Shown: positions 6,295-27,722, numbered from the stretch's first letter. The stretch is 32,000 nucleotides of DNA from Candidatus Jordarchaeales archaeon (GCA_038889235.1 JAWAHN010000001.1:944499-976498); one strand, 5' to 3'. Notes: a model not told the origin generated them from the letters alone. Translations and numbers: made by a program.

Positions 6295-6497
6295 TTTGTA
6301 CGCCCTCTCGATTCCCCAAACCATCCCTAAAAATTTTTGACCAATACGCTAAATTCAGGTAATATTTTGAATATCATAACTCTTTCTTTTTAATAATTTT
6401 TACGCAAATTTCGGAATAATCTTAACGAGCAAGAAAATCAAAAGTAAAATGATTGGAAGTATTTGGTGCGGGGGGTGGGATTTGAACCCACGAACGC

Positions 6498-6513
6498 GTG
6501 CGCCCATACTGGT
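6498..6513 (-). other. tRNA intron 3 (16 nt, variable arm)
   Basis: ACCAGTATGGGCGCAC. Helix GCGT/GCGC, bulges AG|A and AC|G, inner stem CCA/TGG. Confidence 0.8.
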
Positions 6514-6543
6514 CTACGCGATGGGCTCCTGAGGCCCACCCCT

Positions 6544-6559
6544 ATGGTCATCCACGCCT
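6544..6559 (-). other. tRNA intron 2 (16 nt, position 21/22)
   Basis: AGGCGTGGATGACCAT. Helix GGTC/GACC, bulges AA|A and AT|A. Confidence 0.75.
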
Positions 6560-6564
6560 TTGAC

Positions 6565-6582
6565 TTTGCCTGCAGGACGCAT
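6565..6582 (-). other. tRNA intron 1 (18 nt, position 18/19)
   Basis: ATGCGTCCTGCAGGCAAA. Helix AGCC/GGCA (3 of 4 paired), bulges AG|A and AA|G, inner stem TGC/GCA. Confidence 0.8.
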
Positions 6583-6620
6583 CTGGCTTGGGTACCCCCG
6601 CCCAACAATCAAAATTCCAT

Positions 6621-8024
6621 TCATTTGGGTCTATTCGTGCAAACATTTTCCACTATATACTCTGCAATCTGCTCGGCTTTTTGTTTAAGTTTTTCTGTTA
6701 TGTACCCTTTAATAAATGCTTCTTCGAGCGCGTTCTTGTCTATGATTCTTAGAGTTCCGTCAGGAAGCTGCACAACGTCAATTTCTAGGTCCACATATCT
6801 TATTTTTCCAGGGTAAATTTCTATTGGGGTGTTTATGTTGTGAAATGCGCCCTTGAACTCCCCGTTTTTAGAGTAATATTCTGTTCTGAAGAACCACTCG
6901 CCTACCCTAACTCTAGTTATGCCGTAATCTCCTTCCTCTTTCGGAACGTTCAGTCCGTCATAATATCCCCCCTCAGTGAAGCTTCTCTTTACAACTATCT
7001 CCTGATCGTCCTTGTTTTGCAGTATTTTTCCGTGAAGAAACAATACTTTACCGTCAAGTTTTATGTGCTCAAAGCGCACTTTGCTCCCGTTTTTTAAAGA
7101 ATCGCTGATAGTCATTTTTTGAAGCGTTTCTTTGATCTCACTTCGCAGCTCTGGATGCTTTGAAATAAGATTTTCAGCAAAATCGACTAGAAGTGCAACA
7201 TCGCTCCCCAGTGACTTGTAGAAGTGGTGCCCGTCTATTGTTGGCGTAACGCTCCCTCTTATTTCGTCCAGTTGTTTTTTTGCGCTTGCGGGGAACTCAG
7301 CGATAACGGTTTCGTCGCCTTCCCTAATAAGTGTCGGCTCGTCTACGTTCTCTGAAAGAGAAATTATTTTCTTCAATTCTTCCCCTATTTCTTCTACTTC
7401 TTTTGTAATAAGTGAAAGGTCCGCTTTCCCCGCCGCCGTCCTGAAGATTATGCCTACCCCAGCAGGTTTCATTTTGTTACCAATCCGGTAGAGCACATTG
7501 CGTATATCTCTATCTTTAATTTTATTGCTCACCCCTACATGTCCACTGGAAGTCAGCACCACGTACTTTCCAGCAATAGCTATCTCCCCAGTCGCCTGTG
7601 GTCGCGGATCCACTTCACATATCCTTAGAAGCTGTATTTCCCCTTCTTCTTTACAGCTCCCCTTCACAGGAAGCTTCAGACATCCTATATCAGCGATTGC
7701 TCTATCTCCACGCTTACCAATTATGCGGCCAACATAGATGGCGTTTAAGTTGACTTTAGCTTTACGGATAATGACGTCTTCTAATTCCTCTCTAATTATG
7801 TTGACGACCCTTTCCAAGGGTTTTTTCTCACCTGTTATGACCACTCCCTGCCTGTTCTTTGTGTCGAAAACTTCTACATCTGGAGGTTCCATTGTCCTCT
7901 CGATTTTCAGCCTTTCAGCCAACACCGATGAACTTTGGGTGATCGATAAGCCATGTTTTAGGAAAAGCTTAGAGAGCGCCGTAGTATAGATTCCTCTAAC
8001 TCTAACCTGAATTTTTTCTTCCAA
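6621..8024 (-). CDS. fau-1: FAU-1-like RNA-binding protein / ribonuclease (RNase E/G-like N-terminus plus DUF402 C-terminus)
   Basis: N-terminal VRVRGIYTTAL, GHHFYK, C-terminal YHNINTP-like FHNINTPIEIYP..IRYVDLEIDVV. TTG 8024 follows GAGGTG. Confidence 0.85.
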   Translation of the reverse strand: MEEKIQVRVRGIYTTALSKLFLKHGLSITQSSSVLAERLKIERTMEPPDVEVFDTKNRQGVVITGEKKPLERVVNIIREELEDVIIRKAKVNLNAIYVGRIIGKRGDRAIADIGCLKLPVKGSCKEEGEIQLLRICEVDPRPQATGEIAIAGKYVVLTSSGHVGVSNKIKDRDIRNVLYRIGNKMKPAGVGIIFRTAAGKADLSLITKEVEEIGEELKKIISLSENVDEPTLIREGDETVIAEFPASAKKQLDEIRGSVTPTIDGHHFYKSLGSDVALLVDFAENLISKHPELRSEIKETLQKMTISDSLKNGSKVRFEHIKLDGKVLFLHGKILQNKDDQEIVVKRSFTEGGYYDGLNVPKEEGDYGITRVRVGEWFFRTEYYSKNGEFKGAFHNINTPIEIYPGKIRYVDLEIDVVQLPDGTLRIIDKNALEEAFIKGYITEKLKQKAEQIAEYIVENVCTNRPK

Positions 8025-8129
8025 TGCAAAACACCTCTTATCACGTCGTCTTAAAAGAAAAGAAGGTAACACCGGGGATAATTGCTTGATTAAACCAGCT
8101 AAGGTTCTTTTCTTTTCGTTATCCTTCAC

Positions 8130-8393
8130 TTACTCATCTCTTATTGTTTCCAGAATGGACACCGCGCTCCATATCTTTGTCCTACTGTGTAGAGGGCAAT
8201 TTGGATCTTGAGACGCCTCCTCAAGTATAGATATCGCGTTTGATGCTTTAACTGCGGGCGTGTACTTAGGTTCTTTAAGTGCTTCTATTGCCTCGTTTGC
8301 TGCTCTTCTAATGTTCCTTGGAGTAGTCGTATCCTCGGATATTTGTTTCAAGATAGCTATTGCCTGATTCATTTTTTCAAGGGCGTTGCTCAA
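8130..8393 (-). CDS. UPF0147 family protein
   Basis: ISEDTTTPRNIRRAA and DPNCPLHSRTKIWSAVSILE. TTG start after AAGGGGG. Confidence 0.88.
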   Translation of the reverse strand: MSNALEKMNQAIAILKQISEDTTTPRNIRRAANEAIEALKEPKYTPAVKASNAISILEEASQDPNCPLHSRTKIWSAVSILETIRDE

Positions 8394-8586
8394 GATAAGC
8401 CCCCCTTGAAATCGATGCATGTTTTAATTCCTAGTTGGGTGTGTTTTTAAAGGCTTTTTACTCTCATATTACCGAGCCAAGCTTTTTTACCTTACGCTTT
8501 CAGATAACTGTTGAACGCTTTATCCCTAAAAACATTTATTTTCATACATCTACTTAAGGTCAATACGTAGATTAATATCTTGTTCG

Positions 8587-8937
8587 GTGAACCCTTTGGA
8601 GTCTGAAAATTTACAGAAAATGGTTGACATGTTAAGGCGAGGGGCCACGCTCCTCTCTAAAGCTTGCCCTGCCTGCAGCTCCCCCTTGTTTAAGATAGGC
8701 GGGAAAATATGGTGTCCGACTTGTGAGAAGCAAGTTGTTGTTGTTAAAGAGGGGGAGCCTCTGCCGTCGGAGTTGAGCAGCCTGCTACTTTCAAGTCTAG
8801 CTAACACGATTTACGAGAAGCTCAGAGAGGTTGAAGGTCGCATTAAGGGAGCTGAAGATGTAGGCGAGCTGCAGGAGGCATTAAGGCTTGCAGTAGGCTT
8901 GCTAGAGGTTTTGGAAAGAATAAAGCGGTTAACATGA
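8587..8937 (+). CDS. UPF0148 / autoantigen-p27-like Zn-ribbon protein
   Basis: MLRRGATLLSKACPACSSPLF....IWCPTC. Divergent from UPF0147. Confidence 0.8.
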   Translation: MNPLESENLQKMVDMLRRGATLLSKACPACSSPLFKIGGKIWCPTCEKQVVVVKEGEPLPSELSSLLLSSLANTIYEKLREVEGRIKGAEDVGELQEALRLAVGLLEVLERIKRLT

Positions 8938-11196
8938 GTCCTCTCCACGGTACTCTGCGCGGAGAACTTCTTTTATCTTCTTAGCTTTCCTCTCTCCTAT
9001 GCCTTGGACGCTCATAAGCTCCTTTTCGTCGGCGGTATAAACGCGCTCCACGCTTTTAAATTTTTGAAGCAGTCTCTTAGCTAGAATGTAGTCTATGCCT
9101 GGCAAGGCAGCTACAATGTGTTCCTGCAACTCTTTTAATGTTGCAGGCTTCTTAACACCTATCCGTATTCCTTTCCTTCCCTCTTCTTTCTCCCTTCGTG
9201 CAATAGTCTTTATCACTTCAGCTGTCTCCTTGGCGTTTTGAGTCCAAAAGATAGGTATCTTAAAGTCAAGTGCTATGCTCACTAGTGCTCCTCTAATCGC
9301 TTCAGGGTTTACCCCTCTTCGCTCATACAAATTTCCTCCTTCTATTATTAACAGGGGTGACTCGTACGTTCTCGAGAGCTCGACTAGTTGCTTAAACAAT
9401 CGCTGGTCTATGATCGACTGAACGAAGTCAGCATCAGTCTTACGCTCTACACCGACCCTCTCCGAAATAACGTAGTCTCCCACGTCTAGCTTTGTCAGGA
9501 CAACTTCGACACCAAGCCTAGCTAGTTCCTGAACGACAGCGTTCCCTCCTTCCCTAACATCTGCGTATACAATCAACTTGTCTCCTCTCGGAATATACTC
9601 CTCCAGGCTAACTTGTTGGTTGACTCCTCTTCCGCCTTCTACATTAACTCTCTTTTTCTCCAAGCTCTTTATGATTCCGCGCATGTTCTCCTCCTTCCAC
9701 TTAACCGACCAATAATATTTCTCGTCCATGGTTCCCTTAGTGATAAGGAAGACCACTTTACCTGGCCTCCTTCTTCCCGTTCTTCCTTTTCTCTGTACGA
9801 ACCTCACCGCACTAGGGGTAATATCGTAGAAGACCACTAAATCGCACTCGCTGACATCAACGCCTTCTTCAGCCACACTGGTGGCAACCAGCACTTTGAA
9901 CTCCCCCCTCCTAAATTTTTCAATTACTTCCGCTTGCTGTTTTTGGGTAAGCCCCGAAGATCCCCCCCTCTTACCCTGACCAATTATTTTATCAGCGCTA
10001 ATTTCGTTCTCGCGGAGAGCTTTTAATAACTCGTTAACAGTACTTCTAAACTGCGTGAACACGATAACCCTAGACTCGGGCTTTCTACAAAGCTGGCTTC
10101 TAATTATGTTGATAAGAGCTCCTCTCTTGGGGTGTGTTACTCCGCGGGAAATCATGTTTTCCGTTTCTTTCTCAACAGAAAGAACTAAGGGGTCCTCGAG
10201 AATGTTTCTTAAACCCTTACCCCCCCTTAGCAGCGCCCTCTCCCTTAGTTGTTCAAAGTATTTTTTAAAAGCCTCAAGTCCTTGTGTTTCCAATATTTCG
10301 AGGGCGTGGGCGAGCCTTATAGCTCCGGAAACCGCTACCAAGCACGCGTAATCTTTTTCGTCCTTATTCTCTTTTCTCAAAAGGGTGCTTTGAATCTCTA
10401 TAAGTTCTTTTCTAGTCCATCTTTTCTTTCTCGCATTAACATAGCCTGCATCTTTTAAAACACTTAGATTTTTTCTAATAACCTCCTCCAACTTCTCCTT
10501 TATACGCAAAAACTCTTCCGGAAGCTTCACTTCGACCCATTCTACTTCAATCGTCTTAACGTAGGGTGCTACGTCGGGGCTTCTCTCCGTTCGCGCCTCC
10601 ACTTGCTTTATACCTAAAACCCTACAAATTTCTAATAATTTTTCTTTCTGAGACCCGGGAGATGCTGTGAGTCCTAATATAAGCGGCTTCCTTGCTCTTC
10701 TCATATATTCCTCAGCTATGAACGTGTAGGGGTAATCTCCCACGGCTCTATGTGCCTCATCGAAAACTAATAGAACCCAGTCTAGGCAGTTTACACGTCC
10801 TGCTATCAAATCATTCCTAACAACTTGTGGAGTTGCTAAGACAACTTTCGCCTCCAACCATATCCTTTCTCTCTCCCCTGGCGCGTTTTCCCCGGTGCAT
10901 ACCCTTATCTCATTTTCGGGTATATTCAGAGCTTTCTTGAAGGTCTCTGCGTGTTGGATGACAAGAGGCCTTGTAGGTGCTAAAACGACGACCTTCCCCC
11001 ATTCATACATCAACAGCCTTTCCGCCGCCACCATTATTGCAATAATCGTTTTACCTAATCCGGTCGGAAGCACCACTAGCGTGTTCCCTTTCAAAGCTTT
11101 AGAAACTATGTTCCTCTGATATTCCCTAAGCTCAATGCTTCCTTCCTTAATAAGAGGGTGTACCAGCATCCCTGGCCCGCTCAAAGGTCTACTCAT
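8929..11196 (-). CDS. hef: Hef: FANCM-like SF2 helicase fused to ERCC4/XPF nuclease and HhH
   Basis: REYQ, LPTGLGKT, DEAHR, QRKGRTGR, then GDYVI..VERK, RLFKQL and C-terminal HhH pair. Confidence 0.95.
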   Translation of the reverse strand: MSRPLSGPGMLVHPLIKEGSIELREYQRNIVSKALKGNTLVVLPTGLGKTIIAIMVAAERLLMYEWGKVVVLAPTRPLVIQHAETFKKALNIPENEIRVCTGENAPGERERIWLEAKVVLATPQVVRNDLIAGRVNCLDWVLLVFDEAHRAVGDYPYTFIAEEYMRRARKPLILGLTASPGSQKEKLLEICRVLGIKQVEARTERSPDVAPYVKTIEVEWVEVKLPEEFLRIKEKLEEVIRKNLSVLKDAGYVNARKKRWTRKELIEIQSTLLRKENKDEKDYACLVAVSGAIRLAHALEILETQGLEAFKKYFEQLRERALLRGGKGLRNILEDPLVLSVEKETENMISRGVTHPKRGALINIIRSQLCRKPESRVIVFTQFRSTVNELLKALRENEISADKIIGQGKRGGSSGLTQKQQAEVIEKFRRGEFKVLVATSVAEEGVDVSECDLVVFYDITPSAVRFVQRKGRTGRRRPGKVVFLITKGTMDEKYYWSVKWKEENMRGIIKSLEKKRVNVEGGRGVNQQVSLEEYIPRGDKLIVYADVREGGNAVVQELARLGVEVVLTKLDVGDYVISERVGVERKTDADFVQSIIDQRLFKQLVELSRTYESPLLIIEGGNLYERRGVNPEAIRGALVSIALDFKIPIFWTQNAKETAEVIKTIARREKEEGRKGIRIGVKKPATLKELQEHIVAALPGIDYILAKRLLQKFKSVERVYTADEKELMSVQGIGERKAKKIKEVLRAEYRGEDSC

Positions 11197-11364
11197 CTGT
11201 CCCCCACCAGGCTCCTAAAAGTATCTTCCAGTGTTCAACGTTATTTTCCCTAAAACATCTACGTGCTTTCCCAGTCATATCTAGTTATAAATCTGCGTCG
11301 CTTCATTAAAACTAATCGATCCCCCCTAAAAGTGCTAAACCCGTTTATCCTCCTGGGTGGAATC

Positions 11365-11721
11365 ATGGAGTTAACTGCAATAAGTCAAGGTCGTGAATGC
11401 TTTTCAGGTATCCAGTGTGAATTGTACGAACTAACTGTCCCCGGAGACCTAGTAGGCAAACTGGTCATTGATGGTGCTGCGAGAATTGTAGGGATAGTGC
11501 GAAGTGTTAAGCTCACGTTACCCCCCGCAAAAATCGAGATAGTGGTTAAAGGGCTCGACGTTGAATTCTCGGTGGATGTTTCTAATGTTAGTGCTGTTGG
11601 TGGTGTTGTTCAATTAAAATCTATTGCCAAGGAAGCCGAACCATTGGAAATAAGAGACGCCCAAAGGTTGAGGAAAGAGCTTATAGAAGAAATACGGGCA
11701 ATGATCTCAAACATATCCTAA
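11365..11721 (+). CDS. Small PRC-barrel-like protein with C-terminal helix
   Basis: DLVGKLVID...IVGIV and V..VSAVGGVVQLK match the PRC-barrel pattern from memory. ATG 11365 follows GGGTGG. Confidence 0.55.
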   Translation: MELTAISQGRECFSGIQCELYELTVPGDLVGKLVIDGAARIVGIVRSVKLTLPPAKIEIVVKGLDVEFSVDVSNVSAVGGVVQLKSIAKEAEPLEIRDAQRLRKELIEEIRAMISNIS

Positions 11722-13643
11722 GCCCCACTTTCCCTGACGGACGGACTTTCGTTGGCGTAGATCGCAGTGCACCTGACATCCATACACTTAGAACAATGAA
11801 TGCACCTGTCTTCTAGAATCCACGCCATCCCCCAGTTAATCAGGATAGCTTGTCTCTTACAAGTTGAAACGCACTCACCACAACCCACACACCTTAACGC
11901 CTTCACCATAACTTGAGAAATGTAACGCTTCATTTTTCTAGCAGCTTCTTCTGAAGAACTATAAGCAGCAAACTCACCGTTTGCACGAACACGTACCCCT
12001 CCTTCTTTACACACTACGACGACCTCCCCTCCTTCCACGCTGGCCTCTCCTACAATGTTAGCGATGTTTTTAAGTCGGTCGATAGGCGCTGGAAGGTTAA
12101 AATGCCCGTAAATTGCAGCTCTCCCCTCCTCCTTTTCTTCCCGGTCTACGTGGCATGTGATTTTTCTTCCTCCAGCTGGCCTCTCTACGGGGATCTTTAC
12201 CCCTAGTTGTTCAGCTAAGTCCATGTAGCCTTTAGGCAGCTTCTTCCACCTCCAGAAACCATACCGCACCCATTCTTCAGGGTATCCATAACGTTTCCTC
12301 CACTCCTCAAGCACGCCTACTAGCATGTTATAGAGCTCACCATGTTTCTCCTTAAGTATCTCTATCTCGTAGAGCTTGCTTGCTGGACAAGTCCAACAGC
12401 CTATCCTGTTGAACCCTTCCTCGTATAAGGGATTGTACGCGACCCCTTCCCTGAAAATATAGAGCCAAACGTGTAGCGCCGTCCAGTTCTTTATGGGGTA
12501 TGCCGCTATTTGCCCAGGAACCCACGGGTTAATGCTAATTTTAGGCTCCTTGTACCTGGCTTCAGACTCGTAACTTCTCTGTCCAATGAACGTGAGACAC
12601 CCTTCAGGAAAATTCTCTTTAATCAGCCTCGTCATGGGTCCCAGCTTTATTCCCTTGCAGCAGTGACGGTAATCTCTTCCTGGAGGGCCAAACTCCTCTA
12701 CAAGCTTCCAAAAAACTTCTTTGTCAACTTTTTCTTCTAGGAGATCAAGTCCAAGCTCTCTAACTAATCTCTCCGTATAAGCTACGGTTTCAGGAAATTC
12801 GACACCCGTGTCGACAAATAAAACCTTGAAGTTTTCCCCCAACGCTTTCCTAACGAGTAGGAGAGTAGCCAGTGAATCTTTTCCTCCCGAAAACGCCACG
12901 GTAACCGGTCTCTTATAAGTCCTGGCTACGTTTCTTATGAAGCGTATTGCTTTTTCCTCAAACTTGTTTAAAACTTCCTCATTGGCTTTAACAGCGTCAC
13001 TCCACGTTCCCTTACTCGTTTCCGCCACTTCTGGTGCAATACCTCTCTCCCTTATCTTTACCGCCAACCCCCTTTCTCGAGTTAGCATTTCTCTACCCGA
13101 CTTCTTCGCCACTCCAACAGCGAAAACGCACCCGTCTGGATCGACGACGACTACGTTATCTCCAACTTTAATCTCGGGGTCGCAATCTAAAACTCCGGGG
13201 CCGAGGAGATTAGCGCTTCCTCGCAGTATACTTTCAGCTGCCTTCTTGTCGGAACAAACCCATTTGCTTCCTCCTTGCTGAAATATTATGCGTCCTCCAG
13301 CCAATCTGGGCAAGAATTCCCAGTCGAATTTAAAGACGTTAAACCTTAAGGCTCCGAGGATGCTTCCACCTACTATTATTTCATCCATTTGGTCCAAGTA
13401 GGGTACCTTATTGAGCACTACACATCCGTTGCATTTTAAGTCAACTCCAAATTGGCTCTTCACCGTTCTCCGCAAAACTTCTATCTCCCTTCTAAAGGCG
13501 GGCCTAACGTCACCAGGAGGGGAAATATCAATACTCGCTCCCCTTTCTCCACATGTCGAACATTTGTCATCCAATAGCGGAACGTCACAATTCATGCACC
13601 AGGACAATTTAACTACTCCTAAGTAGACCCCCAACGCAGCCAC
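11718..13643 (-). CDS. PAPS-reductase-family protein with N-terminal Zn finger and PUA domain and C-terminal 4Fe-4S ferredoxin
   Basis: CxxC..CxxC N-terminus, PUA region, PP-loop SGGKDS, CC, RIGCWTCP, C-terminal CVGCGECVSTC and CIHCSKC. Confidence 0.85.
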   Translation of the reverse strand: MAALGVYLGVVKLSWCMNCDVPLLDDKCSTCGERGASIDISPPGDVRPAFRREIEVLRRTVKSQFGVDLKCNGCVVLNKVPYLDQMDEIIVGGSILGALRFNVFKFDWEFLPRLAGGRIIFQQGGSKWVCSDKKAAESILRGSANLLGPGVLDCDPEIKVGDNVVVVDPDGCVFAVGVAKKSGREMLTRERGLAVKIRERGIAPEVAETSKGTWSDAVKANEEVLNKFEEKAIRFIRNVARTYKRPVTVAFSGGKDSLATLLLVRKALGENFKVLFVDTGVEFPETVAYTERLVRELGLDLLEEKVDKEVFWKLVEEFGPPGRDYRHCCKGIKLGPMTRLIKENFPEGCLTFIGQRSYESEARYKEPKISINPWVPGQIAAYPIKNWTALHVWLYIFREGVAYNPLYEEGFNRIGCWTCPASKLYEIEILKEKHGELYNMLVGVLEEWRKRYGYPEEWVRYGFWRWKKLPKGYMDLAEQLGVKIPVERPAGGRKITCHVDREEKEEGRAAIYGHFNLPAPIDRLKNIANIVGEASVEGGEVVVVCKEGGVRVRANGEFAAYSSSEEAARKMKRYISQVMVKALRCVGCGECVSTCKRQAILINWGMAWILEDRCIHCSKCMDVRCTAIYANESPSVRESGA

Positions 13644-13726
13644 CCAAATTAGTGTTGAAAATTCCAGCAGTCCCTTAGCTGAATGGTGGAAGAAAAAGTG
13701 TGGAATTGTAAAAATTAAATAATTCT

Positions 13727-14140
13727 TTACTTTTCAAGCTCTTTCTCTATTAGTTCAGCGTAATCCTCTGCGCTCAGTAAGTTTTCTTTTTCCTCGTCGA
13801 GGTTGGAGGCCTCGATTACAACCATCCAACCCTCACCATACGGATCACTGTTAATCATTTCTGGCGAGTCCTCTAATGCATTGTTAACCTCTATAATTGT
13901 ACCACTAACTGGTGCATAAATCTCTGCTACCGCCTTAACCGACTCGATGGTTCCAAGTTCATCTCCTTGGCTTACTTTGTCACCAACCTCGGGCAACTCC
14001 ACGTAAACTATCTCTTTCAGCTGTTTTTGAGCGTAGTCCGTAATGCCTACACGCACCTTTCCGTTTTCTATCTTAGCCCATTGATGTGTTTCACTGTAAA
14101 GCAGGTTGTCCGGTACTAAAACGTCGCCTACTTTAACCAT
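13727..14140 (-). CDS. gcvH: Glycine cleavage system H (lipoyl-carrier) protein
   Basis: HQWAK, GITDYAQ, IESVKAVAEIYAPVSG (lipoyl Lys), INSDPYGEGW. AGGAGG SD. Confidence 0.95.
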   Translation of the reverse strand: MVKVGDVLVPDNLLYSETHQWAKIENGKVRVGITDYAQKQLKEIVYVELPEVGDKVSQGDELGTIESVKAVAEIYAPVSGTIIEVNNALEDSPEMINSDPYGEGWMVVIEASNLDEEKENLLSAEDYAELIEKELEK

Positions 14141-14335
14141 GTGTTTTCCTCCTAAAATCCTTTCAATAGTTCCTCAAGGAAGTTGCTTCATAAAGCTTTC
14201 GTTTTACAATCCCATTAAATCTCTGAGACCTTTCACTCCTTAAGAAAAACTAAACCGTTTTAGTCGTCTTATAGGGGAAGAGCATTTAAGCCGTCTTTGT
14301 ATCTAACTTTTTGGAGACTTAGAAGGAGGGCTATT

Positions 14336-14836: not shown

Positions 14837-14941
14837 GGCGTCTTTTCGGGATTAATTTCCACAATTTTTTTATCGCATCCTCCCTTCTAAGTCTCCTTGA
14901 AGGCGTCGTGCAGTGACCGCTGAAAAGAGGAGGGTTGATGG

Positions 14942-18984: not shown

Positions 18985-19060
18985 AAAAACATTTACATGG
19001 TTCTTTTCTCTTCTCTTTTTATTGGAGAAGAACAAAACTGAGGACTGGAGATGAGTTTTT

Positions 19061-20213
19061 ATGTGGCGTGTTGTTCGCCCAGACTCGATTAACGTGTGGA
19101 ACGATGAACAAGTCTTAAATAGGCTCAAACGTTACTACGAGGTTTTTAACGGCAGAAAGTTCGCTAAAATGATTATTGCAAGTAGGGTGGAAGTTGACGA
19201 CGACCTTGAAGCTCCCACAAAGAAGCTTTGGGATCAACATAGAAAGGCTAGTGGAGTTTTTCGCCGCCTCCTTAAAGAAATAGACCAGGGCGACACGAAA
19301 TTAAATAACTTAGACACTCCCAAGACGTCTTACCTAGATTTAAAGGTGGAGCTTGCAAAGCGAATATTAACAAACTGCCATTTTTGTGAAAGAAGATGTG
19401 GTGTAAATAGGCTGGCGGGGGAGCGGGGCTTTTGCCAGCTTGATGCTAAAGCATATGTATCGTCAGCCTTCCTTCACCTCGGGGAAGAAGCTCCCTTGGT
19501 TCCTTCGGGCACAAACGCCAGAGGCCCCCTCTGGTGGTGCAATCTTTTTTAACATGTGCACTTTCAGGTGCGTCTTCTGCCAAAATCACGACATTTCAAC
19601 TGTAATAGATGGCGTCGAAGTCGATGGAGAAAAACTGGCTAGTTTAGCACGCCATTTAAAGAGGGAGGGGGCCCGAAACATAAACTATGTCGGCGGAGAC
19701 CCGACGCCATCGTCATACGTAATTCTTGATGCTATAAGAATTCTTGCACGTACAGGGACAAACATTGTTCAGCTATGGAACTCCAATTTCTACTGTAGCA
19801 AGGAGTTGATGACGCTGCTTTTCGACGTCATAGACTTCTGGCTTCCAGACTTCAAGTATGGCAACGATAATTGTGCAGAAACACTTTCAAAAGTTAGGAA
19901 GTACTTTGACGTAGTGTCTAGAAATCATAAGCTCGCATATGATGAAACCGTCGTAGAGGGTAGCTCGGGAATGATAATACGTCACCTAGTAATGCCTGGG
20001 CACATAGATTGTTGCACAAAGCCTATTCTAGAATGGATCGCTAAAAATACTCCATTAGCCCTTGTTAATGTAATGGCACAGTACCATCCCGACTATCTTG
20101 TTCCAAGGAGTCCTGAATACAAGGACATAAACCGTAGGGTAACCGCCAGGGAAATGAAGGAAGCCTATGATTACGCTGACGCACTAGGCCTATTGTGGAG
20201 GCCAGTTAGCTAA
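19061..20213 (+). CDS. pflX: PflX-like radical SAM protein, spliced: join(19061..19514,19543..20213), 374 aa
   Basis: CHFCERRCGVNR..G..GFC, HLGEEAPLVPSGT|IFF, CTFRCVFC, VGGDPTP, WNSNFY, DFKYGND, IIRHLVMPGH, NVMAQYHP. The two track ORFs join in frame after removing 28 nt. Confidence 0.88.
19515..19542 (+). other. BHB intron in mRNA (28 nt)
   Basis: Central helix GCAC/GTGC, bulges AA|A and AA|T, 9-bp inner hairpin, outer pairs G-C and G-U. Confidence 0.88.
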
Positions 20214-20241
20214 TGGCCATGCCTTTTAACCTTTCCCTTGC

Positions 20242-21273
20242 TCACCACCACTTCGTCTCCCTGCACTCACCTATTACCGGTATTCTTTCACCGCAACGCG
20301 GGCATTTTCCGTCTTTCAAGTTGCACTTAAGCACCGTGAAACCGTATCTTCTGATCACTCTTTCACCACAACTTGGACACAGTGTGTCTTCTCCCTCTCC
20401 CGGGATATTTCCCATGTAGACGTAGTGCAGTCCCTCTTTCATTGCTATCTCCCGTGCCCTGGCTACTGTCGAGGGCGGAGTTGGAGGAAGATCTGTTAAC
20501 TTATAGTGGGGGAAGAATCTGGAAAAATGGACGGGTACATCGTCTCCAACATTTTCCTTAACCCACCTTGCAAACTCTCTAAACTCCTCCTCGCTGTCAT
20601 TCAGTGTAGGTATTATCAGGTATGTTAGCTCCACGTGTATTTTCTCCTCCTTCATGACTAGGATGGCGTCTAGTACTGGCTTAACCCCTGGCGCTTTACA
20701 AATTTTCTTGTAAAATTCATCTCTCATCGATTTGACATCAACGTTAGCGGCATCTATGTACGGCGCAATATTCCTCAAGGGTTCCTCCATTATGTAGCCA
20801 TTAGTCACAAGCACGTTCATTATTCCTCTCTCATGTGCAAGCTTCGCCACGTCAAAAACAAATTCGTACCAAATAAATGGTTCATTGTACGTGTACGCTA
20901 TAGATCTGCTTCCGCTCCTCTCAGTACGCTTAACTATCTCTTCCGGCGAAAAATCCCTAGTTAGACCGCTTTCAATAGAAACCTGCGAAATCTGCCAGTT
21001 CTGACAGTTTTGACAATGCAGGTTACAACCTACCGTTGAGATAGAGAATATGTTGCTTCCAGGGTAAAAATGGAAGAGTGGCTTCTTTTCTATTGGGTCT
21101 ACGGCCATTGAAGAAACCGCACCATAAACCAGCGTGAACAACTTTCCTCCCCTATTTTCGCGGACACCGCAGCCCCCTCGTTTGCCCTCTCTAATAACAC
21201 AATTGTGGGGGCATAAACGACAAACTACTGTTCCATCGTCTTTAGGCTCGTAGAATAATGCTTCCTTTATCAT
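20242..21273 (-). CDS. amrS: AmmeMemoRadiSam-system radical SAM enzyme
   Basis: CRLCPHNC...G.CGVREN, DPIEKKPLFHFYPG, GCNLHCQNCQN, YTYNEP, FSRFFPHY, C-terminal CPSC/CPRC. Start after GGTGA. Confidence 0.88.
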   Translation of the reverse strand: MIKEALFYEPKDDGTVVCRLCPHNCVIREGKRGGCGVRENRGGKLFTLVYGAVSSMAVDPIEKKPLFHFYPGSNIFSISTVGCNLHCQNCQNWQISQVSIESGLTRDFSPEEIVKRTERSGSRSIAYTYNEPFIWYEFVFDVAKLAHERGIMNVLVTNGYIMEEPLRNIAPYIDAANVDVKSMRDEFYKKICKAPGVKPVLDAILVMKEEKIHVELTYLIIPTLNDSEEEFREFARWVKENVGDDVPVHFSRFFPHYKLTDLPPTPPSTVARAREIAMKEGLHYVYMGNIPGEGEDTLCPSCGERVIRRYGFTVLKCNLKDGKCPRCGERIPVIGECRETKWW

Positions 21274-21423
21274 TGAGGTCACCTTCTCCGCTTCACTTAT
21301 GTTTGGAACAACAATGCACTCTAAGAAAATAATTATCCTTTGAAAGGAGAAATCTCTTTTGGAATAAAACATTTTTATTAAGAGGAATTTTTAGTCTCCC
21401 AAAAGGAGAGGAAGGGGATTCAT

Positions 21424-22314
21424 TTGGGAACAACGAACGATACCGTGCTTGTTGCAGGGTCGGCTTCCCAACTGCTAGCAGTCAGAATAGCGCGCGCTCT
21501 TAAAGTGGAATTAGTACCTATGGCGTCTAAAACTTTTCCAGACGGAGAACTTTACTTACGATTTCTCTCACCTCTCAATGGACGAAGAGTAATAATCGTC
21601 CAGTCAACTCCACCCCCCCAGAACTCAAATCTTCTCGAGCTCTTCTTCCTCATCAACGCTGCAGTAGAGAAAGGTGCAGACGAAATCATTGCCGTGGTCC
21701 CATATTTGGCATACGCCCGGCAGGATAAAGAGTTCCTCCCCGGAGAAGCAGTAAGCGGGCGCTACATATGCCGTATGTTAAAGAACTGCGGTGCAGATAT
21801 AGTTATAACAGTCAACATACACAGCAGAAGCATATTCGAAGGAATTGATTTGCCTTTTATAGACCTAGACGCATTCCCCTTAATAGCCGAGTACTTTGAG
21901 AAGACTCCTCTAAAGGACCCCTTAGTCCTAGCCCCTGACAAAGGAGCAGTAGAGGAAGGGTCGCTCATTGCAGAGAAGTTGGGCTGTTCTTTCGCCTTCT
22001 TGGAAAAGGAGAGGGACAGGTATACTGGAGAAATAGTCACTGCAGAAAAGCAGATGGGTCTTAAAGGACGCGACGTGCTTATAGTTGATGATATCATAAG
22101 TACTGGTGGAACTATGGCTAACGCCGTCTCCATAGCTGTTAAACAGGGAGCGCGAAACGTTTACGTGGCCTGTGTTCATCCGCTGCTCGTTGGTGAAGCG
22201 CGTCTCAAGATTCTAAACGCTGGGGCGAGGGAAATAATCGGGACAGATAGTGTCCCAAGTGATGTAAGCATAATTTCTTTAGCACCATTAATCGTTGGTG
22301 CGTTAAAACGTTGA
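21424..22314 (+). CDS. prs: Ribose-phosphate pyrophosphokinase
   Basis: FPDGE, PYLAYARQDK, APDKGA, VDDIISTGGT, CVHPLL. Confidence 0.95.
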   Translation: MGTTNDTVLVAGSASQLLAVRIARALKVELVPMASKTFPDGELYLRFLSPLNGRRVIIVQSTPPPQNSNLLELFFLINAAVEKGADEIIAVVPYLAYARQDKEFLPGEAVSGRYICRMLKNCGADIVITVNIHSRSIFEGIDLPFIDLDAFPLIAEYFEKTPLKDPLVLAPDKGAVEEGSLIAEKLGCSFAFLEKERDRYTGEIVTAEKQMGLKGRDVLIVDDIISTGGTMANAVSIAVKQGARNVYVACVHPLLVGEARLKILNAGAREIIGTDSVPSDVSIISLAPLIVGALKR

Positions 22315-23339
22315 AGACCCGTTTCTTCTTCCTTCTATCAGGAGAAAACGAGAAATTGTCTCAGGGAGAGCTCAAGGCTATCTTAGAGGCTAGCGGCCTC
22401 CCGTTCAGCTTTTCAGCGTCGGGTCGAGTTGCCATAGTTGAAACAGACTATCGCGTTGCCCAGCTAATTCTAGAACGCTCTGCTATGTGCCATTACGGCT
22501 GCTTGCTTGTTGCAGAATCGCCCCCCTCGCTTAACCTATTATTCGACGCTCTTTCATCGTCCCCAATCAATTCCATAGTTTCACCCACTGACTCCTTCGC
22601 GGTTAGGGCGAAGCCCGTCAATCCACTCCCTTACGAAGTTGACACAATGCTTCTAGAAAGAACACTAGGTGAATTTGTGAAGAAGATGACAGATGCGCGG
22701 GTCAATCTGAAAAACCCGAATAAACTCTTAGTTTGTCTTTTAACTGAAAAAGAATTTCTTTTTGGGTTATGCATTGGGCGCTCAGCTAGAAAAAGTTTTA
22801 GACTCCGTCCCACCCGTTATAGGCCATTCATGACTTCTTCGTCTATGTCTCCCTTCACTGCGAGAACTATGGTTAACTTGGCAAGGGCGTTAAGTGGCCA
22901 CATACTTCTAGATCCTTTTTGTGGTAGTGGAAGTATACTTATAGAGGCAGCGTTAATTGGATGTCGGGTTGTAGGAGGAGACATAGACCCTAGAATGGTT
23001 CGCGGTGCAAAGGCAAACTTCAATTACTACCAAATAGATGGCGATTTGCTAATAGGTGACGCTCGTTACCTCCCGTTCTCAAGCGTTGACAGAGTTGTAA
23101 CAGATCCGCCTTATGGTCGTGCCGCGTCAACGAAAGGCGTGCCACTCGATGTTCTCCTCCAGCACTTCTTGTCGTCTATGAGCAGTGTTCTTAAAAAGGG
23201 AGGCTGGTTATGCATGGCATGCCCCTCGAACGTAAACGTAGAACGCTATATGGATGTCCACGATTTTAAAATAGTGGAAACATATCAAGTGCGTGTTCAC
23301 GGAGGTCTCACAAGAAAAATAGTTGTTTCGAAGAGGTGA
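22311..23339 (+). CDS. trm11: THUMP-domain tRNA G10 N2-methyltransferase (Trm11/TrmG10 family)
   Basis: THUMP-like N-terminus, LDPFCGSGSILIEA, TDPPYGR, VHGGLTR. Confidence 0.85.
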   Translation: MKTRFFFLLSGENEKLSQGELKAILEASGLPFSFSASGRVAIVETDYRVAQLILERSAMCHYGCLLVAESPPSLNLLFDALSSSPINSIVSPTDSFAVRAKPVNPLPYEVDTMLLERTLGEFVKKMTDARVNLKNPNKLLVCLLTEKEFLFGLCIGRSARKSFRLRPTRYRPFMTSSSMSPFTARTMVNLARALSGHILLDPFCGSGSILIEAALIGCRVVGGDIDPRMVRGAKANFNYYQIDGDLLIGDARYLPFSSVDRVVTDPPYGRAASTKGVPLDVLLQHFLSSMSSVLKKGGWLCMACPSNVNVERYMDVHDFKIVETYQVRVHGGLTRKIVVSKR

Positions 23340-24323
23340 ATGTCCGCTTTGACACTGAAGATCGTTTTCCTAGGAACATCCGGCAGCATACCAACCTCTC
23401 AAAGAAACCTTCCTGCCGTGGCCGTCTGCCTCGATAGGGAAATCCTTCTTTTCGACTGCGCTGAAGGCACCCAGAGGCAAATGTTCATGGCTGGGTTAAG
23501 CATAAGCCGTATTTCGAAAATATTCATATCGCACTTGCACGGAGACCATGTAATGGGCCTGCCAGGAATAATTCAAACGCTCTCTCTCATGGAAAGAGAG
23601 ACACCATTAGACATATACGGACCCCTAGGCCTTTCCAATCTTATAAATTCTCTCGCAGAAAATCTCGCATTTTCCCCGTCTTTTGATATCAACGTTCACC
23701 AGGTTTCTCCAGGAAATCTTTTCGAGTCCTCCAAATATGTTGTTAAATGCGCGCAGGTTGATCACGGATCAATAGACGCTTACGCATATGCATTTGAAGA
23801 GAAACCAAAACCTGGAAAGTTCCACCCCGAAAAAGCAGTAATGTTAGGTGTACCCATGGGTCCTCTCTGGAAGCAACTTCAAATGGGAAAACCTGTAACG
23901 CTTGAAAACGGCCGCGTGGTGGTTCCAGAAGAAGTTGTAGAGCCTTCGAAACCAGGAAGGAAGATAGTTTACTCTGGAGATACCGCCCCCTGTCAGGCAC
24001 TCCTCGAACTAAGCAGCTTTGCTGATGTTCTGATCCACGAAAGCACCTTTGATCACACGCTCGAGAGCAAAGCCAATGAAACAAAACACTCGACAAGCGT
24101 GCAGGCAGCAATGATAGCTCGTGAGGCAAAAGTTAACCTTCTAGTTCTAACGCACATCAGTTCAAGGTATACGGACACAAGCCTACTACTCCAACAAGCA
24201 AAAGAAATTTTTCCGAACACTATAGTTGCCCAAGATTTCATGGAAGTGCTTATTGACTCAAAAGGTACTGTCAAAGTCTCTCTAATCTCCGCTCAAACGA
24301 AAACCCTACAAAACACTATATAA
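23340..24323 (+). CDS. rnz: Ribonuclease Z
   Basis: FLGTSG, SHLHGDH, exosite GVPMGPLW..LQ.G, YSGDT, HEST, HST, LTHISSRY. Confidence 0.95.
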   Translation: MSALTLKIVFLGTSGSIPTSQRNLPAVAVCLDREILLFDCAEGTQRQMFMAGLSISRISKIFISHLHGDHVMGLPGIIQTLSLMERETPLDIYGPLGLSNLINSLAENLAFSPSFDINVHQVSPGNLFESSKYVVKCAQVDHGSIDAYAYAFEEKPKPGKFHPEKAVMLGVPMGPLWKQLQMGKPVTLENGRVVVPEEVVEPSKPGRKIVYSGDTAPCQALLELSSFADVLIHESTFDHTLESKANETKHSTSVQAAMIAREAKVNLLVLTHISSRYTDTSLLLQQAKEIFPNTIVAQDFMEVLIDSKGTVKVSLISAQTKTLQNTI

Positions 24324-24354
24324 CGAGCAGCTCGCTTCATGTTACTGAGATGGC

Positions 24355-24783
24355 TTACGCATCTGAGGGTGGTGCTGTCTCTTGTGGTTTTCCATCTATT
24401 GTGGGTGGGCAAAGCCACTCAACTAACTCGTTTATTTTGTTACTTATTATCGTCACTTTTATTGCTCCCATCGGCGACTCCCTTTCTGGGGCACAAAAGT
24501 GAAGTTTACCCACGTACGCCGCTTGTTTGTTTAGGTAAAATGTCAGCTCGTTTTCTCTAATATTCCTCTTTAGAACCCCCCTTGCCGCCTCCACTATGTA
24601 TTGTTCACGCAATTTTTCATATATCTGTCGCAAGCTATCTATACCTTCAGCCTCACCCACCAGTCTTTCTTCATCCCCTTCTTTATAGGTCTGGTAATCA
24701 ACGTTTAGAATGTTTTTTAATGCCCTAATCACTTTATCTGGGTCTTCTGTCGGTTTTAAAGGCGTTTCCACCCTTATTTTCAT
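24355..24783 (-). CDS. UPF0201 (DUF54) RNA-binding-fold protein
   Basis: PLKPTEDPDKVIRALKNI and LNKQAAYVGK. Confidence 0.85.
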   Translation of the reverse strand: MKIRVETPLKPTEDPDKVIRALKNILNVDYQTYKEGDEERLVGEAEGIDSLRQIYEKLREQYIVEAARGVLKRNIRENELTFYLNKQAAYVGKLHFCAPERESPMGAIKVTIISNKINELVEWLCPPTIDGKPQETAPPSDA

Positions 24784-25324
24784 CCATTATCCTCCTAAGA
24801 AGTTCTCTAATCCTCATCTTGAACTCTTCAATGTCCCCCTCATTAACTATCATGTAGTCCGCTAATGCTAAAGCAGCTCCCAAGCCAACTCGCAGCTCTC
24901 TCTCGTCTCTCTCAACGAAGTGCTCTATACTTTTTGGGTCGTCTTCCCTTCCCCTCGAAGTCAACCTCTTTAAACGGGTTTTTGGTGAAGCATGAACACC
25001 TATTAACCTAAAGTCCGGGTAGTTTTCTCTAAATGTCTTAATTTCGGCTAAACTTCTTACTCCTTCTACAACTACTATTTCGTTTTTCTCCGCGTTTATT
25101 TTCGGTATACATCTCCTTGCAATAGCGTCCTCCCCCTCTTCTTCTCTGATTTTAATCATGAGCATGCCTATGTTTTCTGGGGAGGGAGGGATCCCCCTCT
25201 TCCTTGCAACCTCACGTATAACATCTCCCATAGAGACTACCGGTATTCCCTCGCTTCTCGCTACCTCTGCTGCAACACTCTTTCCACTTCCAGGCATGCC
25301 TACTATGCCAATGACCTTCTTCAA
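24734..25324 (-). CDS. UPF0200 NMP-kinase-like P-loop protein (often annotated dephospho-CoA kinase-like)
   Basis: GMPGSGKS, MGDVIRE, VEGVRS..E, RGREDD, RDEREL.VG. TTG start after GGGTGGGAG. Confidence 0.82.
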   Translation of the reverse strand: MKKVIGIVGMPGSGKSVAAEVARSEGIPVVSMGDVIREVARKRGIPPSPENIGMLMIKIREEEGEDAIARRCIPKINAEKNEIVVVEGVRSLAEIKTFRENYPDFRLIGVHASPKTRLKRLTSRGREDDPKSIEHFVERDERELRVGLGAALALADYMIVNEGDIEEFKMRIRELLRRIMDENKGGNAFKTDRRPR

Positions 25325-25355
25325 ATCTCCCACCCGGAGGAGTGCCCGAGCCTGA

Positions 25356-26498
25356 CTATATAAAAAGATATTCAGCACCTCCAGTTTTGCTCCGGGTTTT
25401 GAAAATTTCGCTCAAAACTTCTTCTATCAATTGCTGGTCTATTTTGTCTGCATTTTTTATGATTGCCCTATGGAACGCAGTTTTAAGCAATTTCTCCTTT
25501 AAATCTCTTCCAGAGAACCCTTCAGTTATAGAGGCTATTTTGTCGAAGTCACACTCAACTTTGAGGGGAATCTTCTTGGCGTACATCTCGAGAATCTGCC
25601 TTCTTTCCTCTAGCGATGGCAGCGTGAACTCGATTTCCTCCTCAAACCTGTTTCTAAGGGCCAAATCTAATAGCATTAAGTTGTTTGTGGCCCCGATGCA
25701 CACAACACCCGGTGTAAGCTCCAGCTTATCCATCTCTGCCAGGAGGGCGTTAACCACCTCAGTGACGTCGCCCCTTACACTTTGAAACCTTCTATCGAGC
25801 CCTATAGCATCTATCTCGTCTAAATATACGACACTTGGGGCTGCCTCTCTCGCTCTCCTGAAAAGCCTACTTATTTTACTCGCCGCATCACCTACGTGGG
25901 TGCCTATGAGTTCAGGCGATTTAACGAAGAAAAACTCTGCTCCAGCCTCATTAGCCAGTGCTTGTGCCGTCATCGTTTTTCCCGTTCCTGGAGGACCATA
26001 AAAGAGAATGATTCTAGGCGCCCAGTCACCAAAAGCTTCTGGGCTTTCTAAGTACTTTTTTATGATCATGCACTTTTCTTTAGCCCTTTGTTGTCCGACA
26101 ACATCCGCGAGTGTAATCTTGGGAAACCGCGTAGAGGGGCGTCTTTCCGCTTTCTTAATTACTTTAAATACAGTTTTATTGGTAATTTGCCCCTCACTAG
26201 GTGTCATGTCGACTATCTTGAAAGCGAAGTCTGGAAAAAGGGACCTATCAAAAAGCAGATCTCCCTTTTTGACGTATAATCCATCCCATTGTTCTCTGGC
26301 ATACGCTTGGAATACCTCAGGATTATCCACAGTCAATATAGTCTCTTTGTCCTCTCCTATTTCCCTTAAAGGGTATCCTAAAGGTTCAAGTTCTACTAGT
26401 ACTGCCTGTTTTATTCTCTCTTTGCTTTTCTTATGCTTTTTTAGACTTTTGTAGTATACTTTTTCCTTTTCTAATTCCTCATTAACCAAGTACTTCAC
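25356..26498 (-). CDS. Single-ring AAA ATPase (archaeal predicted-ATPase type with N-terminal EQW..LFD domain)
   Basis: GPPGTGKT, YLDEIDAI, GATN, RNRFEEEIEF, GFSGRD. GTG start overlaps the dnaG TGA. Confidence 0.88.
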   Translation of the reverse strand: MKYLVNEELEKEKVYYKSLKKHKKSKERIKQAVLVELEPLGYPLREIGEDKETILTVDNPEVFQAYAREQWDGLYVKKGDLLFDRSLFPDFAFKIVDMTPSEGQITNKTVFKVIKKAERRPSTRFPKITLADVVGQQRAKEKCMIIKKYLESPEAFGDWAPRIILFYGPPGTGKTMTAQALANEAGAEFFFVKSPELIGTHVGDAASKISRLFRRAREAAPSVVYLDEIDAIGLDRRFQSVRGDVTEVVNALLAEMDKLELTPGVVCIGATNNLMLLDLALRNRFEEEIEFTLPSLEERRQILEMYAKKIPLKVECDFDKIASITEGFSGRDLKEKLLKTAFHRAIIKNADKIDQQLIEEVLSEIFKTRSKTGGAEYLFI

Positions 26499-27722
26499 CC
26501 TTCTTGCTCCATCATTATTTCATTGAATTCCATCACTTTGAGCTCTGCCGGCCTTTTGACCACATTTTCCTGGCGAACCCCAACAATCCACCTAGCACCC
26601 TTTTCTTGCGAAATGTCAATAAGTCTCTGCGTAACTATCCCGTCGAGAACTATGCCCCCGATTTTCTCATTAATGTTTCGAAGGTAATCTGCTAGCTCCG
26701 ATACTTCGACTTCTGCTACCATGTTAAGGTTCTCTCCAAGTATCCTTGCCTTACCAGTGTTGAAAATTGCTTTCGAGTGCTCAATCACTTCCTGCGGAAC
26801 CCTGCTCACTTTCTTAACAACTTGTTGTACTTTCTTTTCTTCACGTTTCTTCATTTGCTCTTGCTCGACTATTTGCTCGACGGGTACCTTGTTGTTCAAT
26901 GCTTTCACTATCTCTTTGAAAGTAAGGTCTTCGACCTCACGGCCAGGGGGTGCTCTAGCAATATAATCTATGTCCGCGACCTGCAGTAACTCTTTCAAAA
27001 TTAAGTCGCCGCCTCTGTCTCCATCCAGAAAAGCTGTTACTACTTTTTTCTTACTCAGCTCGATTATCGTTTTCGGGATGCTGGTTCCCTCTACCGCTAT
27101 GACGTTCTTGAAGCCGTGTTTTAACATATTAAGCACGTCAGCTCTACCTTCAACTATGATGATTTCGTCTGACGAGTCTATTTCTGGGCCTGCGGGCAGC
27201 CCTTCTTTTCCATATTTGCATATCTCCGCCGTTCTTACCGCTTCAAGGACCTTGTTGACTATCTGTTCTGTCTCTGGGGAAACCTCCTCCGGCCACCTTC
27301 TTAGAATTTCAACGGCCCGCTCAATAATCCTCTTTCGTTTACTTTCTCTAACATCCTCTATAGATTCAAATGTCACTTTAGCGCTGCATGGCCCTATTCT
27401 GTCAATAGTTTCGAGTGCCGCTGCAAGGATGGCTGTCTCAACTTTATCAAGACTTGAAGGAACAATTATCTCCCCTATAGCTTTACCTCCATGATACTCA
27501 AGTTCTGCCTTTATACGCCCTATTCTCCCCGTGCGTTGAAGCTCTCTTAGATCCATGTCAGATCCGAGAAGCCCCTCCAATTTGCCTACGTGAGCCGCGA
27601 CCGGCTCCACGTAATTGGCCGAATATTGCTCCTATGACATCGGGCTTCTCGACAACACCATTTACCTCTATTTTTGCTTTTATAATGTATTTTATCGTGC
27701 CGATATCATTTCGATCAGCCAT
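26495..27722 (-). CDS. dnaG: Archaeal DnaG (TOPRIM primase-like, exosome-associated), spliced: join(27722..27615,27580..26495), 397 aa
   Basis: Exon 1 [36 protein letters not shown] follows SD GGAGGTGA. Exon 2 [23 protein letters not shown]...IVEGRADV...FLDGDRGG. The two parts are in different frames. Confidence 0.92.
27581..27614 (-). other. BHB-like intron in dnaG mRNA (34 nt)
   Basis: TTACGTGGAGCCGGTCGCGGCTCACGTAGGCAAA. Helix GGCC/GGCA, bulges AA|T and AA|T, 11-bp inner hairpin. Confidence 0.85.

Follow-up and report, generated by a model that had tools for sequence, protein, structure and literature searches.

Do the short inserts that interrupt conserved genes of an Asgard archaeon represent introns that have to be removed from the messenger RNA (mRNA) before it is read, and how far does such splicing reach in the genome? 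This question is raised by a stretch of 32,000 nucleotides (nt) from a Candidatus Jordarchaeales archaeon (GCA_038889235.1 JAWAHN010000001.1:944499-976498), here called the window, in which a radical SAM gene, the gene dnaG and a transfer RNA (tRNA) gene for leucine are interrupted by five inserts; all positions given below without a contig label are counted from the first letter of the window. A preliminary description had read these inserts as five introns of 16-34 nt in three genes, each with a helix of 4 nt and bulges of 3 nt that start with A. All five inserts were found where that description had placed them and with the lengths it had given, and the helix and the A-first bulges were present in every one of them. 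We put the probability that the five inserts are archaeal bulge-helix-bulge (BHB) introns, which would be removed by the endonuclease EndA and the ligase RtcB, at roughly 0.88. All five show the BHB motif in a relaxed form, and the inner helices are strong in both mRNAs (9 bp for the radical SAM insert, 7 or more bp for that of dnaG).

Two interrupted protein genes in the window

On the plus strand, the PflX-like gene for a radical SAM enzyme (19061-20213) shows a change of frame at ...EEAPLVPSGT / IFFNMCTFRCVFCQN. According to the list of open reading frames (ORFs) and the alignment of the junction to intact orthologues, exon 1 spans positions 19061-19514 and ends with ...EEAPLVPSGT plus the first base of an Ile codon, whereas exon 2 spans positions 19543-20213, starts with (I)FFNMCTFRCVFCQN and contains the Pfam domains Radical_SAM and Fer4_12. 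The intervening 28 nt (19515-19542) are of the length 3n+1. The BHB shape is itself the minimum-energy fold of this insert (z = -2.97; 0 of 200 shuffles were equally stable), and it consists of the central helix GCAC (19509-12)/GTGC (19537-40), the bulges AAA (19513-15) and AAT (19541-43), and the inner helix. With each bulge cut between its second and third base, PSGT|IFFNMC would be joined and a protein of 374 residues would result.

The dnaG gene is encoded by the minus strand. Its exon 1 (27615-27722) comprises 36 codons, ends with GAIFGQ and specifies an N-terminus that is kept in all relatives, while exon 2 (26495-27580) begins with LEGLLG and encodes the Toprim domain (Pfam). The insert between them is 34 nt long (27581-27614), again 3n+1, and its fold energy corresponds to z = -3.07. 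The central helix GGCC (27617-20)/GGCA (27583-86) has 3 bp and one G.A mismatch, and both bulges read AAT. Here, a cut after the second bulge base would join GAIFGQ|LEGLLG and give a protein of 397 residues.

Both spliced proteins align to uninterrupted orthologues with 55-65% identity, and no gap was observed within 15 residues of either junction. The excision of the inserts thus repairs the two frames exactly, and the view of the preliminary description that both mRNA introns are 3n+1 long, lie in conserved motifs and must be spliced is in full agreement with these alignments: splicing of both messages would be obligatory, because the unspliced message meets a stop codon a few codons further on. 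The actual cleavage and ligation of the radical SAM and dnaG mRNAs are inferred here from the sequence.

Conservation of the two inserts among relatives

An insert was present at the same radical SAM codon in 10 of the 10 other readable genomes of the order (families f1 and f2). The insert lengths listed for relatives were 28, 28, 28, 28, 27, 31 and 31 nt, and the insert of 27 nt, which is in frame, contains a TGA. Outside the order, PSGTIFF is unbroken in at least eight readable relatives. In the alignment of the radical SAM introns, 85.7% of the cells were paired, compared to 33-58% when one partner was slid along the other. Moreover, 4 pairs were changed on both sides, as compared to 1.8 in shuffled alignments; the value of 4 was reached in 7 of 500 shuffles.

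For dnaG, an insert was found at the GQ| site in three families (f1, f4 and f9), with lengths of 34, 31, 31, 32, 32, 31 and 40 nt. In family f12 the dnaG intron is located 9 nt downstream of this site, and no dnaG intron was detected in family f2 and many other families. One of the relatives (G004) has a perfect dnaG central helix, GGTC/GACC. Covariation across the families was judged from a table based on helix register, and a MAFFT alignment was rejected as structurally meaningless. The table revealed that base 3 on the exon side of the helix is a Gly wobble position (GGC, GGT or GGA), and that the opposite base in the intron follows it (G, A or T). A synonymous change of a Gly codon is thus compensated within the intron, and therefore selection appears to act on the RNA helix; it would otherwise be hard to explain such a pattern.

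Some further features of dnaG were observed on the side. The ends of its intron (27577-27620, minus strand) form a direct repeat that is identical in 7 of 8 positions, GGCCAATT and GGCAAATT. This repeat is weaker in the relatives, as exemplified by GGTCAAGT and GACCAATT in G004. In many relatives (G005-G008, G010, G011, G013, G015, G020-G022, G024, G025 and G030), the match to DnaG is divided into two parts with a border near residue 240-260, and a TAA or TAG is present in some of the second parts. This two-part pattern could reflect a second, stop-bearing intron, or merely a diverged linker.

Further probable introns in the host genome

The genome from which the window is derived is a 2.14 Mb draft of 8 contigs, 95% complete with 3.3% contamination, and holds roughly 2,100 genes. 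A census of its mRNA introns was made independently of the BHB motif, by aligning the open frames of reference genomes to the host genome and collecting matches that were distributed over two frames with extra bases between them, or that contained stop-bearing insertions in frame. The references were the whole genome of Ca. Odinarchaeum and the first 1.2 of the 2.8 Mb of Atabeyarchaeia-1, which together span perhaps half of the host genes. Splice lengths were taken from the orthologue alignments; ranking by local alignment score was dropped, as it favoured over-long deletions.

Altogether, this census yielded 15 mRNA introns, namely the two of the window, in dnaG (34 nt) and the radical SAM gene (28 nt), and 13 more. 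Nine of the latter shift the frame. These interrupt the genes for aEF-2 (29 nt, in GHV|DF), a hydrogenase/Nuo 49k-30k subunit (59 nt, in CGICSNA|H), GatE (31 nt), PCMT (31 nt, in SAP|HM), L44e (29 nt), an AIR-synthase/SelD-like protein (31 nt) and an unnamed family of 437 residues (29 nt), as well as cbf5 (29 nt, in GTL|DP, C1:835887-835915 of the host genome) and kae1 (14 nt, in GPG|LG). The remaining four are in frame with a stop codon inside, and they reside in the genes for PEP synthase/PPDK (18 nt), a Rab-like GTPase (30 nt) and a GlcD-like FAD oxidase (27 nt), and in one unnamed gene (33 nt). At the length predicted by the orthologues, a BHB was present in all 15 cases. The spliced products align across the junction to their Odinarchaeum or Atabeyarchaeia orthologues with no nearby gap, except for a single gap in the radical SAM protein. 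A motif whose inner or outer helix comprises 7 or more pairs was present at 7 of the 15 orthologue-defined junctions, compared to 0.41 expected at random positions in the genome.

The prediction that more introns would be hidden as frameshifts or in-frame insertions is therefore borne out by 13 cases (9 and 4, respectively). The density suggested for them, two introns per about 30 genes or about 6%, proved too high, since the 15 introns found in roughly 2,100 genes correspond to about 1%. By extrapolation, the true number of mRNA introns in the host genome is probably 25-40, which would correspond to about 1-2% of the genes. The window represents a local hot spot.

A third candidate for a split gene in the window was rejected. 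The ORFs at 24734-25378 and 24355-24783 (minus strand) share 50 nt, read in different frames, and are two ordinary genes, encoding a P-loop kinase-like protein of 214 residues and an RNA-binding protein of 142 residues (PF01877) that has its own ATG. Elsewhere in the host genome, a multi-copy family of about 400 residues shows the same relative frame shift in two copies without a BHB (C3:178.2-179.2k and C2:427.2-428.3k); it has many paralogues in Atabeyarchaeia-1 and is reminiscent of genes of mobile elements in which a frameshift is programmed or fixed. Lastly, short frame-hopping protein matches to both references were clustered at C1:894-897k and C2:21.2-21.6k, which most likely represent conserved RNA genes (ribosomal RNA) that were read as protein.

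Observations that do not fit and alternative explanations

Several of our observations weigh against the interpretation of the inserts as BHB introns. The motifs of both window mRNAs are relaxed: the 4-bp helix of dnaG contains the G.A mismatch and no outer helix follows its AAT bulge, and the outer exon-exon helix of the radical SAM gene has 2 bp only, such that the strict hBHBh' shape is incomplete in both genes. A loose motif test was positive at 9 of the 15 junctions versus 39% at control lengths, which is not significant (p = 0.08). It should be noted that these control lengths, applied to the true junctions, partly captured the real hairpin in a shifted register, hence the 39% of matches, and that they were replaced by the random positions mentioned above. 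The preliminary description had named a lack of further motif-bearing insertions above shuffled background as one part of the outcome that would speak against its reading. By motif scans alone, such an excess was indeed not observed: in whole-genome scans for a BHB motif combined with an ORF fusion, candidates in the true frame never exceeded the wrong-frame controls. This was so at several stringencies, for which constraints on folding energy, A-first bulges, closure of the junction and filters for coding potential were used. On each strand, a relaxed BHB is found about every 7 nt, and chance matches arise at each of the several hundred same-strand gene junctions of the host genome; motif scans therefore cannot estimate the total number of introns. 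In addition, about 8 other frame-switch junctions of the host genome, including those at C1:304.8k, C1:645.3k, C1:884.1k, C2:115.6k, C2:385k, C2:395k and C3:434k, showed no convincing BHB at the predicted length. Errors in sequencing, genes in decay, genuine frameshifts or a different recoding device may account for these junctions, and therefore not every broken frame in this genome is an intron.

Could the interrupted genes be explained without splicing? The ribosome might read through the inserts with no cut in the RNA, either because a frameshift is programmed or because the insert is bypassed during translation, as is known from gene 60 of phage T4. Indeed, a length of 3n+1, a stable hairpin and a subsequent stop in the old frame, as seen in both window mRNAs, are also features of recoding sites. 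However, the insert lengths span different mod-3 classes both in the radical SAM gene (27, 28 and 31 nt) and in dnaG (31, 32, 34 and 40 nt), which rules out a fixed ribosomal frameshift. Four of the host introns are in frame and yet contain stop codons, and no matched take-off and landing codons were seen that would be in line with bypassing. What is conserved is the 4-bp helix between exon and intron together with the two bulges, in other words the EndA signal that is common to the tRNA introns of the host. We consider recoding by the ribosome highly improbable for these reasons, and the same holds true for the idea that the interrupted genes are pseudogenes, or artefacts in the assembly or binning of metagenome-assembled genomes. 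The draft state of the host genome and the several frame breaks that lack a BHB would be compatible with this idea. On the other hand, inserts were found at the same codon in independent assemblies of several genera and families, with helices that co-vary, and this recurrence rules out assembly errors and recent pseudogenes. The flanking exons are 60-87% identical at the protein level among the respective relatives, and the affected genes include the single-copy essential genes dnaG, aEF-2, L44e, kae1 and cbf5. Furthermore, such inserts are carried by two closed genomes, that of Odinarchaeum LCB_4, for which polymerase chain reaction (PCR) and Nanopore sequencing served to close the chromosome, and the long-read-validated one of Atabeyarchaeia-1.

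Only marginally more credible, and still very unlikely, is the view that small, mobile hairpins of DNA have by chance entered genes and are tolerated there, with two separate polypeptides being produced from internal starts and no splicing at all. Potential internal starts do exist, namely a GTG at 27610 in the downstream frame of dnaG and a TTG at 19440 in the second frame of the radical SAM gene, and the near-direct repeat at the ends of the dnaG intron would also be consistent with mobile hairpins. However, the breaks are located within tightly conserved motifs, such as GQ|TEG in DnaG, GT|IFF just before the CxxxCxxC of the radical SAM protein, GHV|DF of aEF-2 and, in cbf5, the codon for the catalytic Asp, and therefore the separate halves are unlikely to fold. 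Exon 1 of dnaG would encode a mere 36 residues. Moreover, selection keeps the helix between exon and intron, including the compensation of synonymous changes, which is sensible at the RNA level only. Removal of the inserts as BHB introns is thus the explanation that we favour.

A tRNA-Leu gene with three introns

The remaining three inserts of the window are located in one tRNA gene. When the intact sequence of the 32-kb window was searched, no tRNA was reported by ARAGORN, or by Rfam at the gathering threshold, and a permissive Rfam search gave a single weak match to the tmRNA clan (6464-6564, minus strand). The unspliced sequence at 6464-6601 (minus strand) has a perfect acceptor stem of 7 bp, a T-arm and an encoded CCA, and is 138 nt long. 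Upon deletion of the three inserts, ARAGORN reports an 88-nt class II tRNA-Leu(CAG) with a cloverleaf, a long variable arm, the anticodon CAG and the discriminator A.

Intron 1 (6565-6582, 18 nt) interrupts the D-loop. It has the helix AGCC/GGCA with 3 bp and one mismatch, the bulges AGA and AAG, and an inner helix of 4 bp, and its deletion restores the class II D-loop sequence GCCAGGTCAAA. Intron 2 (6544-6559, 16 nt) lies at the border of the D-loop and the D-stem; it has the helix GGTC/GACC and the bulges AAA and ATA, lacks an inner helix and is thus of the bulge-helix-loop type. Intron 3 (6498-6513, 16 nt) is situated in the variable arm and shows the helix GCGT/GCGC, the bulges AGA and ACG, and an inner helix of 3 bp. 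The first G of the helix of intron 2 is supplied by the exon upstream of intron 1, so that the primary transcript allows only 3 bp of this central helix, and 4 bp become possible once intron 1 has left. This suggests ordered splicing in which intron 1 is removed first. Accordingly, the maturation of this tRNA would need three such cuts, probably in order, with intron 1 before intron 2.

In the entire host genome (95% complete), merely 12 loci reached the Rfam threshold for tRNAs, and a crude search for tRNA 3' halves indicated a length of more than 92 nt for 12 of 19 genes. Multi-intron tRNA genes have been described for Thermoproteales, Freyarchaeia and Atabeyarchaeia (Sugahara 2008; PMC11291895), and crowded tRNA introns in the latter two groups have been published (PMC11291895; bioRxiv 10.64898/2026.10.13.758758). 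The tRNA-Leu gene shares with these genes short non-canonical introns that are missed by standard callers. It carries two introns in the D-arm and one in the variable arm, and its lineage is the published intron-rich one. The tRNA-Leu introns are therefore a further example of an already published pattern, with nothing essentially different.

Enzymes and proposed mechanism

The preliminary description had left the EndA architecture of the host to be determined. The host genome encodes two EndA proteins and RtcB, the latter with a match of 600 bits. The alpha subunit of EndA (196 residues) is closest to the catalytic subunit of Aeropyrum pernix (3p1z_B, E = 4e-47); its Tyr-His-Lys residues are kept, and the alignment runs through the loop that is specific for crenarchaeal enzymes. 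The second EndA (195 residues) is without the His and resembles the structural beta subunit. The host enzyme is thus predicted to be an (alpha-beta)2 EndA with a crenarchaeal-type, broad-specificity loop. An Asgard EndA with this architecture and loop has already been published, and (alpha-beta)2 enzymes are reported to accept relaxed motifs (PMC5829648). The position of the EndA cut lies between the second and third bulge residues (PMC2738675).

The following series of events can be envisaged. In the folded transcript, the 4 exon bases that precede the 5' splice site would pair with the 4 intron bases that precede the 3' splice site, which would leave a bulge of 3 nt on each strand. The (alpha-beta)2 EndA would then cleave each bulge between its second and third base, and RtcB would ligate the exons and probably circularise the intron. 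The preliminary description had further proposed that EndA/RtcB would act as a general and potentially regulatory system of mRNA processing, of which the regulatory part is speculative.

Probable introns in relatives and in other Asgard genomes

The host can be assigned to the Jord/Freyarchaeia lineage of the Asgard archaea, and the assumption that it would be placed outside the Crenarchaeota is supported; its phylum-level relatives include Ca. Odinarchaeum LCB_4 and Atabeyarchaeia-1. Besides the genes discussed above, the window encodes the small subunit of PolD, a lysyl-tRNA synthetase (LysRS) of class I and a long helicase-nuclease of the Hef type.

In a reciprocal comparison of the host with Odinarchaeum LCB_4 and Atabeyarchaeia-1, both of which have closed and curated genomes, mRNA introns of the same kind were found in both. 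Odinarchaeum has an intron of 28 nt in kae1 at the same GPG|LG site as the host, one of 29 nt in the radical SAM gene at CAY|CQN, which is a site other than that used in the host, one of 29 nt in gcvP, and one of 34 nt in a further gene. The radical SAM, kae1 and gcvP genes of Odinarchaeum (G011) are located at about 852.8k, 795.5k and 827.3k, respectively. Atabeyarchaeia-1 has an intron of 28 nt in the PCMT gene at the same SAP|HM site as the host, one of 31 nt in a gene for a class I aminoacyl-tRNA synthetase (aaRS) and one of 38 nt in the SHMT gene; the positions of the PCMT, class I aaRS and SHMT genes in this genome (G021) are about 305.6k, 443.9k and 654.0k. Its cbf5 gene is split as well, and splits in the same region of cbf5 were found in three families (f1, f2 and f13), with f16 as a probable fourth. 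The intron in the aEF-2 gene was limited among the relatives to three genomes of the host genus and one genome of family f2. The distribution of the introns is thus patchy, with some sites shared between classes and many being lineage-specific. The shared sites are those in kae1, PCMT and cbf5, and the site in the catalytic Asp codon of cbf5 is also shared with Crenarchaeota. A similarly patchy distribution has been described for the tRNA introns of Asgard archaea (bioRxiv 10.64898/2026.10.13.758758).

The presence of the same device in at least 13 further protein genes of the host, and also in Odinarchaeia and Atabeyarchaeia, suggests a habit that extends through the Asgard phylum, and this habit looks most developed where tRNA introns are crowded too. 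We can only tentatively go one step further, and would give slightly less than even odds to the proposal that EndA splicing is an ordinary, phylum-wide step of Asgard gene expression that concerns tens of protein genes in each genome, among them core genes for replication, translation and RNA modification.

Implications

To our knowledge, textbooks present essentially one spliced protein-coding gene in Archaea, cbf5. One Asgard genome of 2.1 Mb would set at least 15 candidate spliced protein genes against this one, including those for a ribosomal protein and a Rab-like GTPase, and further sets exist in the related classes. Such genes will come out of standard gene callers as frameshifted, truncated or missing, and this distorts completeness estimates, metabolic reconstructions and the phylogenomic marker sets that are used for the closest relatives of eukaryotes. 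Furthermore, a prokaryote that couples translation to transcription would need to have many of its mRNAs spliced before they are read, which has a bearing on how intron-bearing genes were tolerated before there was a nucleus. If EndA splicing is indeed an ordinary step throughout the Asgard phylum, the archaeal lineage behind the eukaryotes would already have lived with obligatory mRNA splicing that was uncoupled from translation, and such splicing could have gated the expression of essential genes. The mRNA introns also provide a natural set of substrates to study the broad specificity of (alpha-beta)2 EndA enzymes.

Comparison with known systems

A non-spliceosomal removal of an mRNA intron is also known from eukaryotes, where IRE1 cuts two stem-loop sites in HAC1/XBP1 mRNA and, in animals, RtcB ligates the products. 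As far as is generally known, this process likewise involves a short intron, an endonuclease plus ligation, and a change in the reading frame. The nuclease and the recognition motif differ, and there is one regulated target in eukaryotes versus many in the present case. Within the Archaea, the EndA of Haloferax belongs to the narrow-specificity homodimer type, and one of its mRNAs is reported to have a BHB in the 5' untranslated region. EndA substrates other than tRNA and rRNA have been searched for systematically in Haloferax volcanii (PMC7714728). Both RtcB and HAC1/XBP1 are mentioned in PMC8718801 and PMC5829648.

The closest known counterpart is the cbf5 intron of the crenarchaeal Desulfurococcales and Sulfolobales, which is 16-44 nt long, contains no ORF, often has a relaxed BHB and is processed by a hetero-oligomeric EndA (Watanabe 2002; Yoshinari 2006; Yokobori 2009; PMC2738675). 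The inserts of the host are likewise short, ORF-less, located in coding sequence and associated with a relaxed BHB, and the 29-nt cbf5 intron of the host even occupies the identical site, between letters 1 and 2 of the catalytic Asp codon (PMC2738675). In contrast, a single gene per genome is affected in Crenarchaeota and at least 15 genes in the present Asgard host, and whereas splicing was shown by complementary DNA (cDNA) in the former, it is deduced from sequence in the latter. In the literature that we searched, BHB introns in coding sequences are documented for cbf5 only (PMC2738675 and its citations). Introns in protein genes are not mentioned in the papers on tRNA introns of Frey- and Atabeyarchaeia (PMC11291895; bioRxiv 10.64898/2026.10.13.758758), nor in the Jordarchaeia and Odinarchaeum genome papers. 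The preliminary description had regarded the introns of the window as the best candidate for an undescribed system. This view holds for the mRNA introns; it does not hold for the crowded tRNA introns, which have been published, or for the mechanism, for which cbf5 is a precedent. The mechanism is that of the known EndA/RtcB pathway, and the novelty lies in its extension to many protein genes in those archaea that are closest to eukaryotes.

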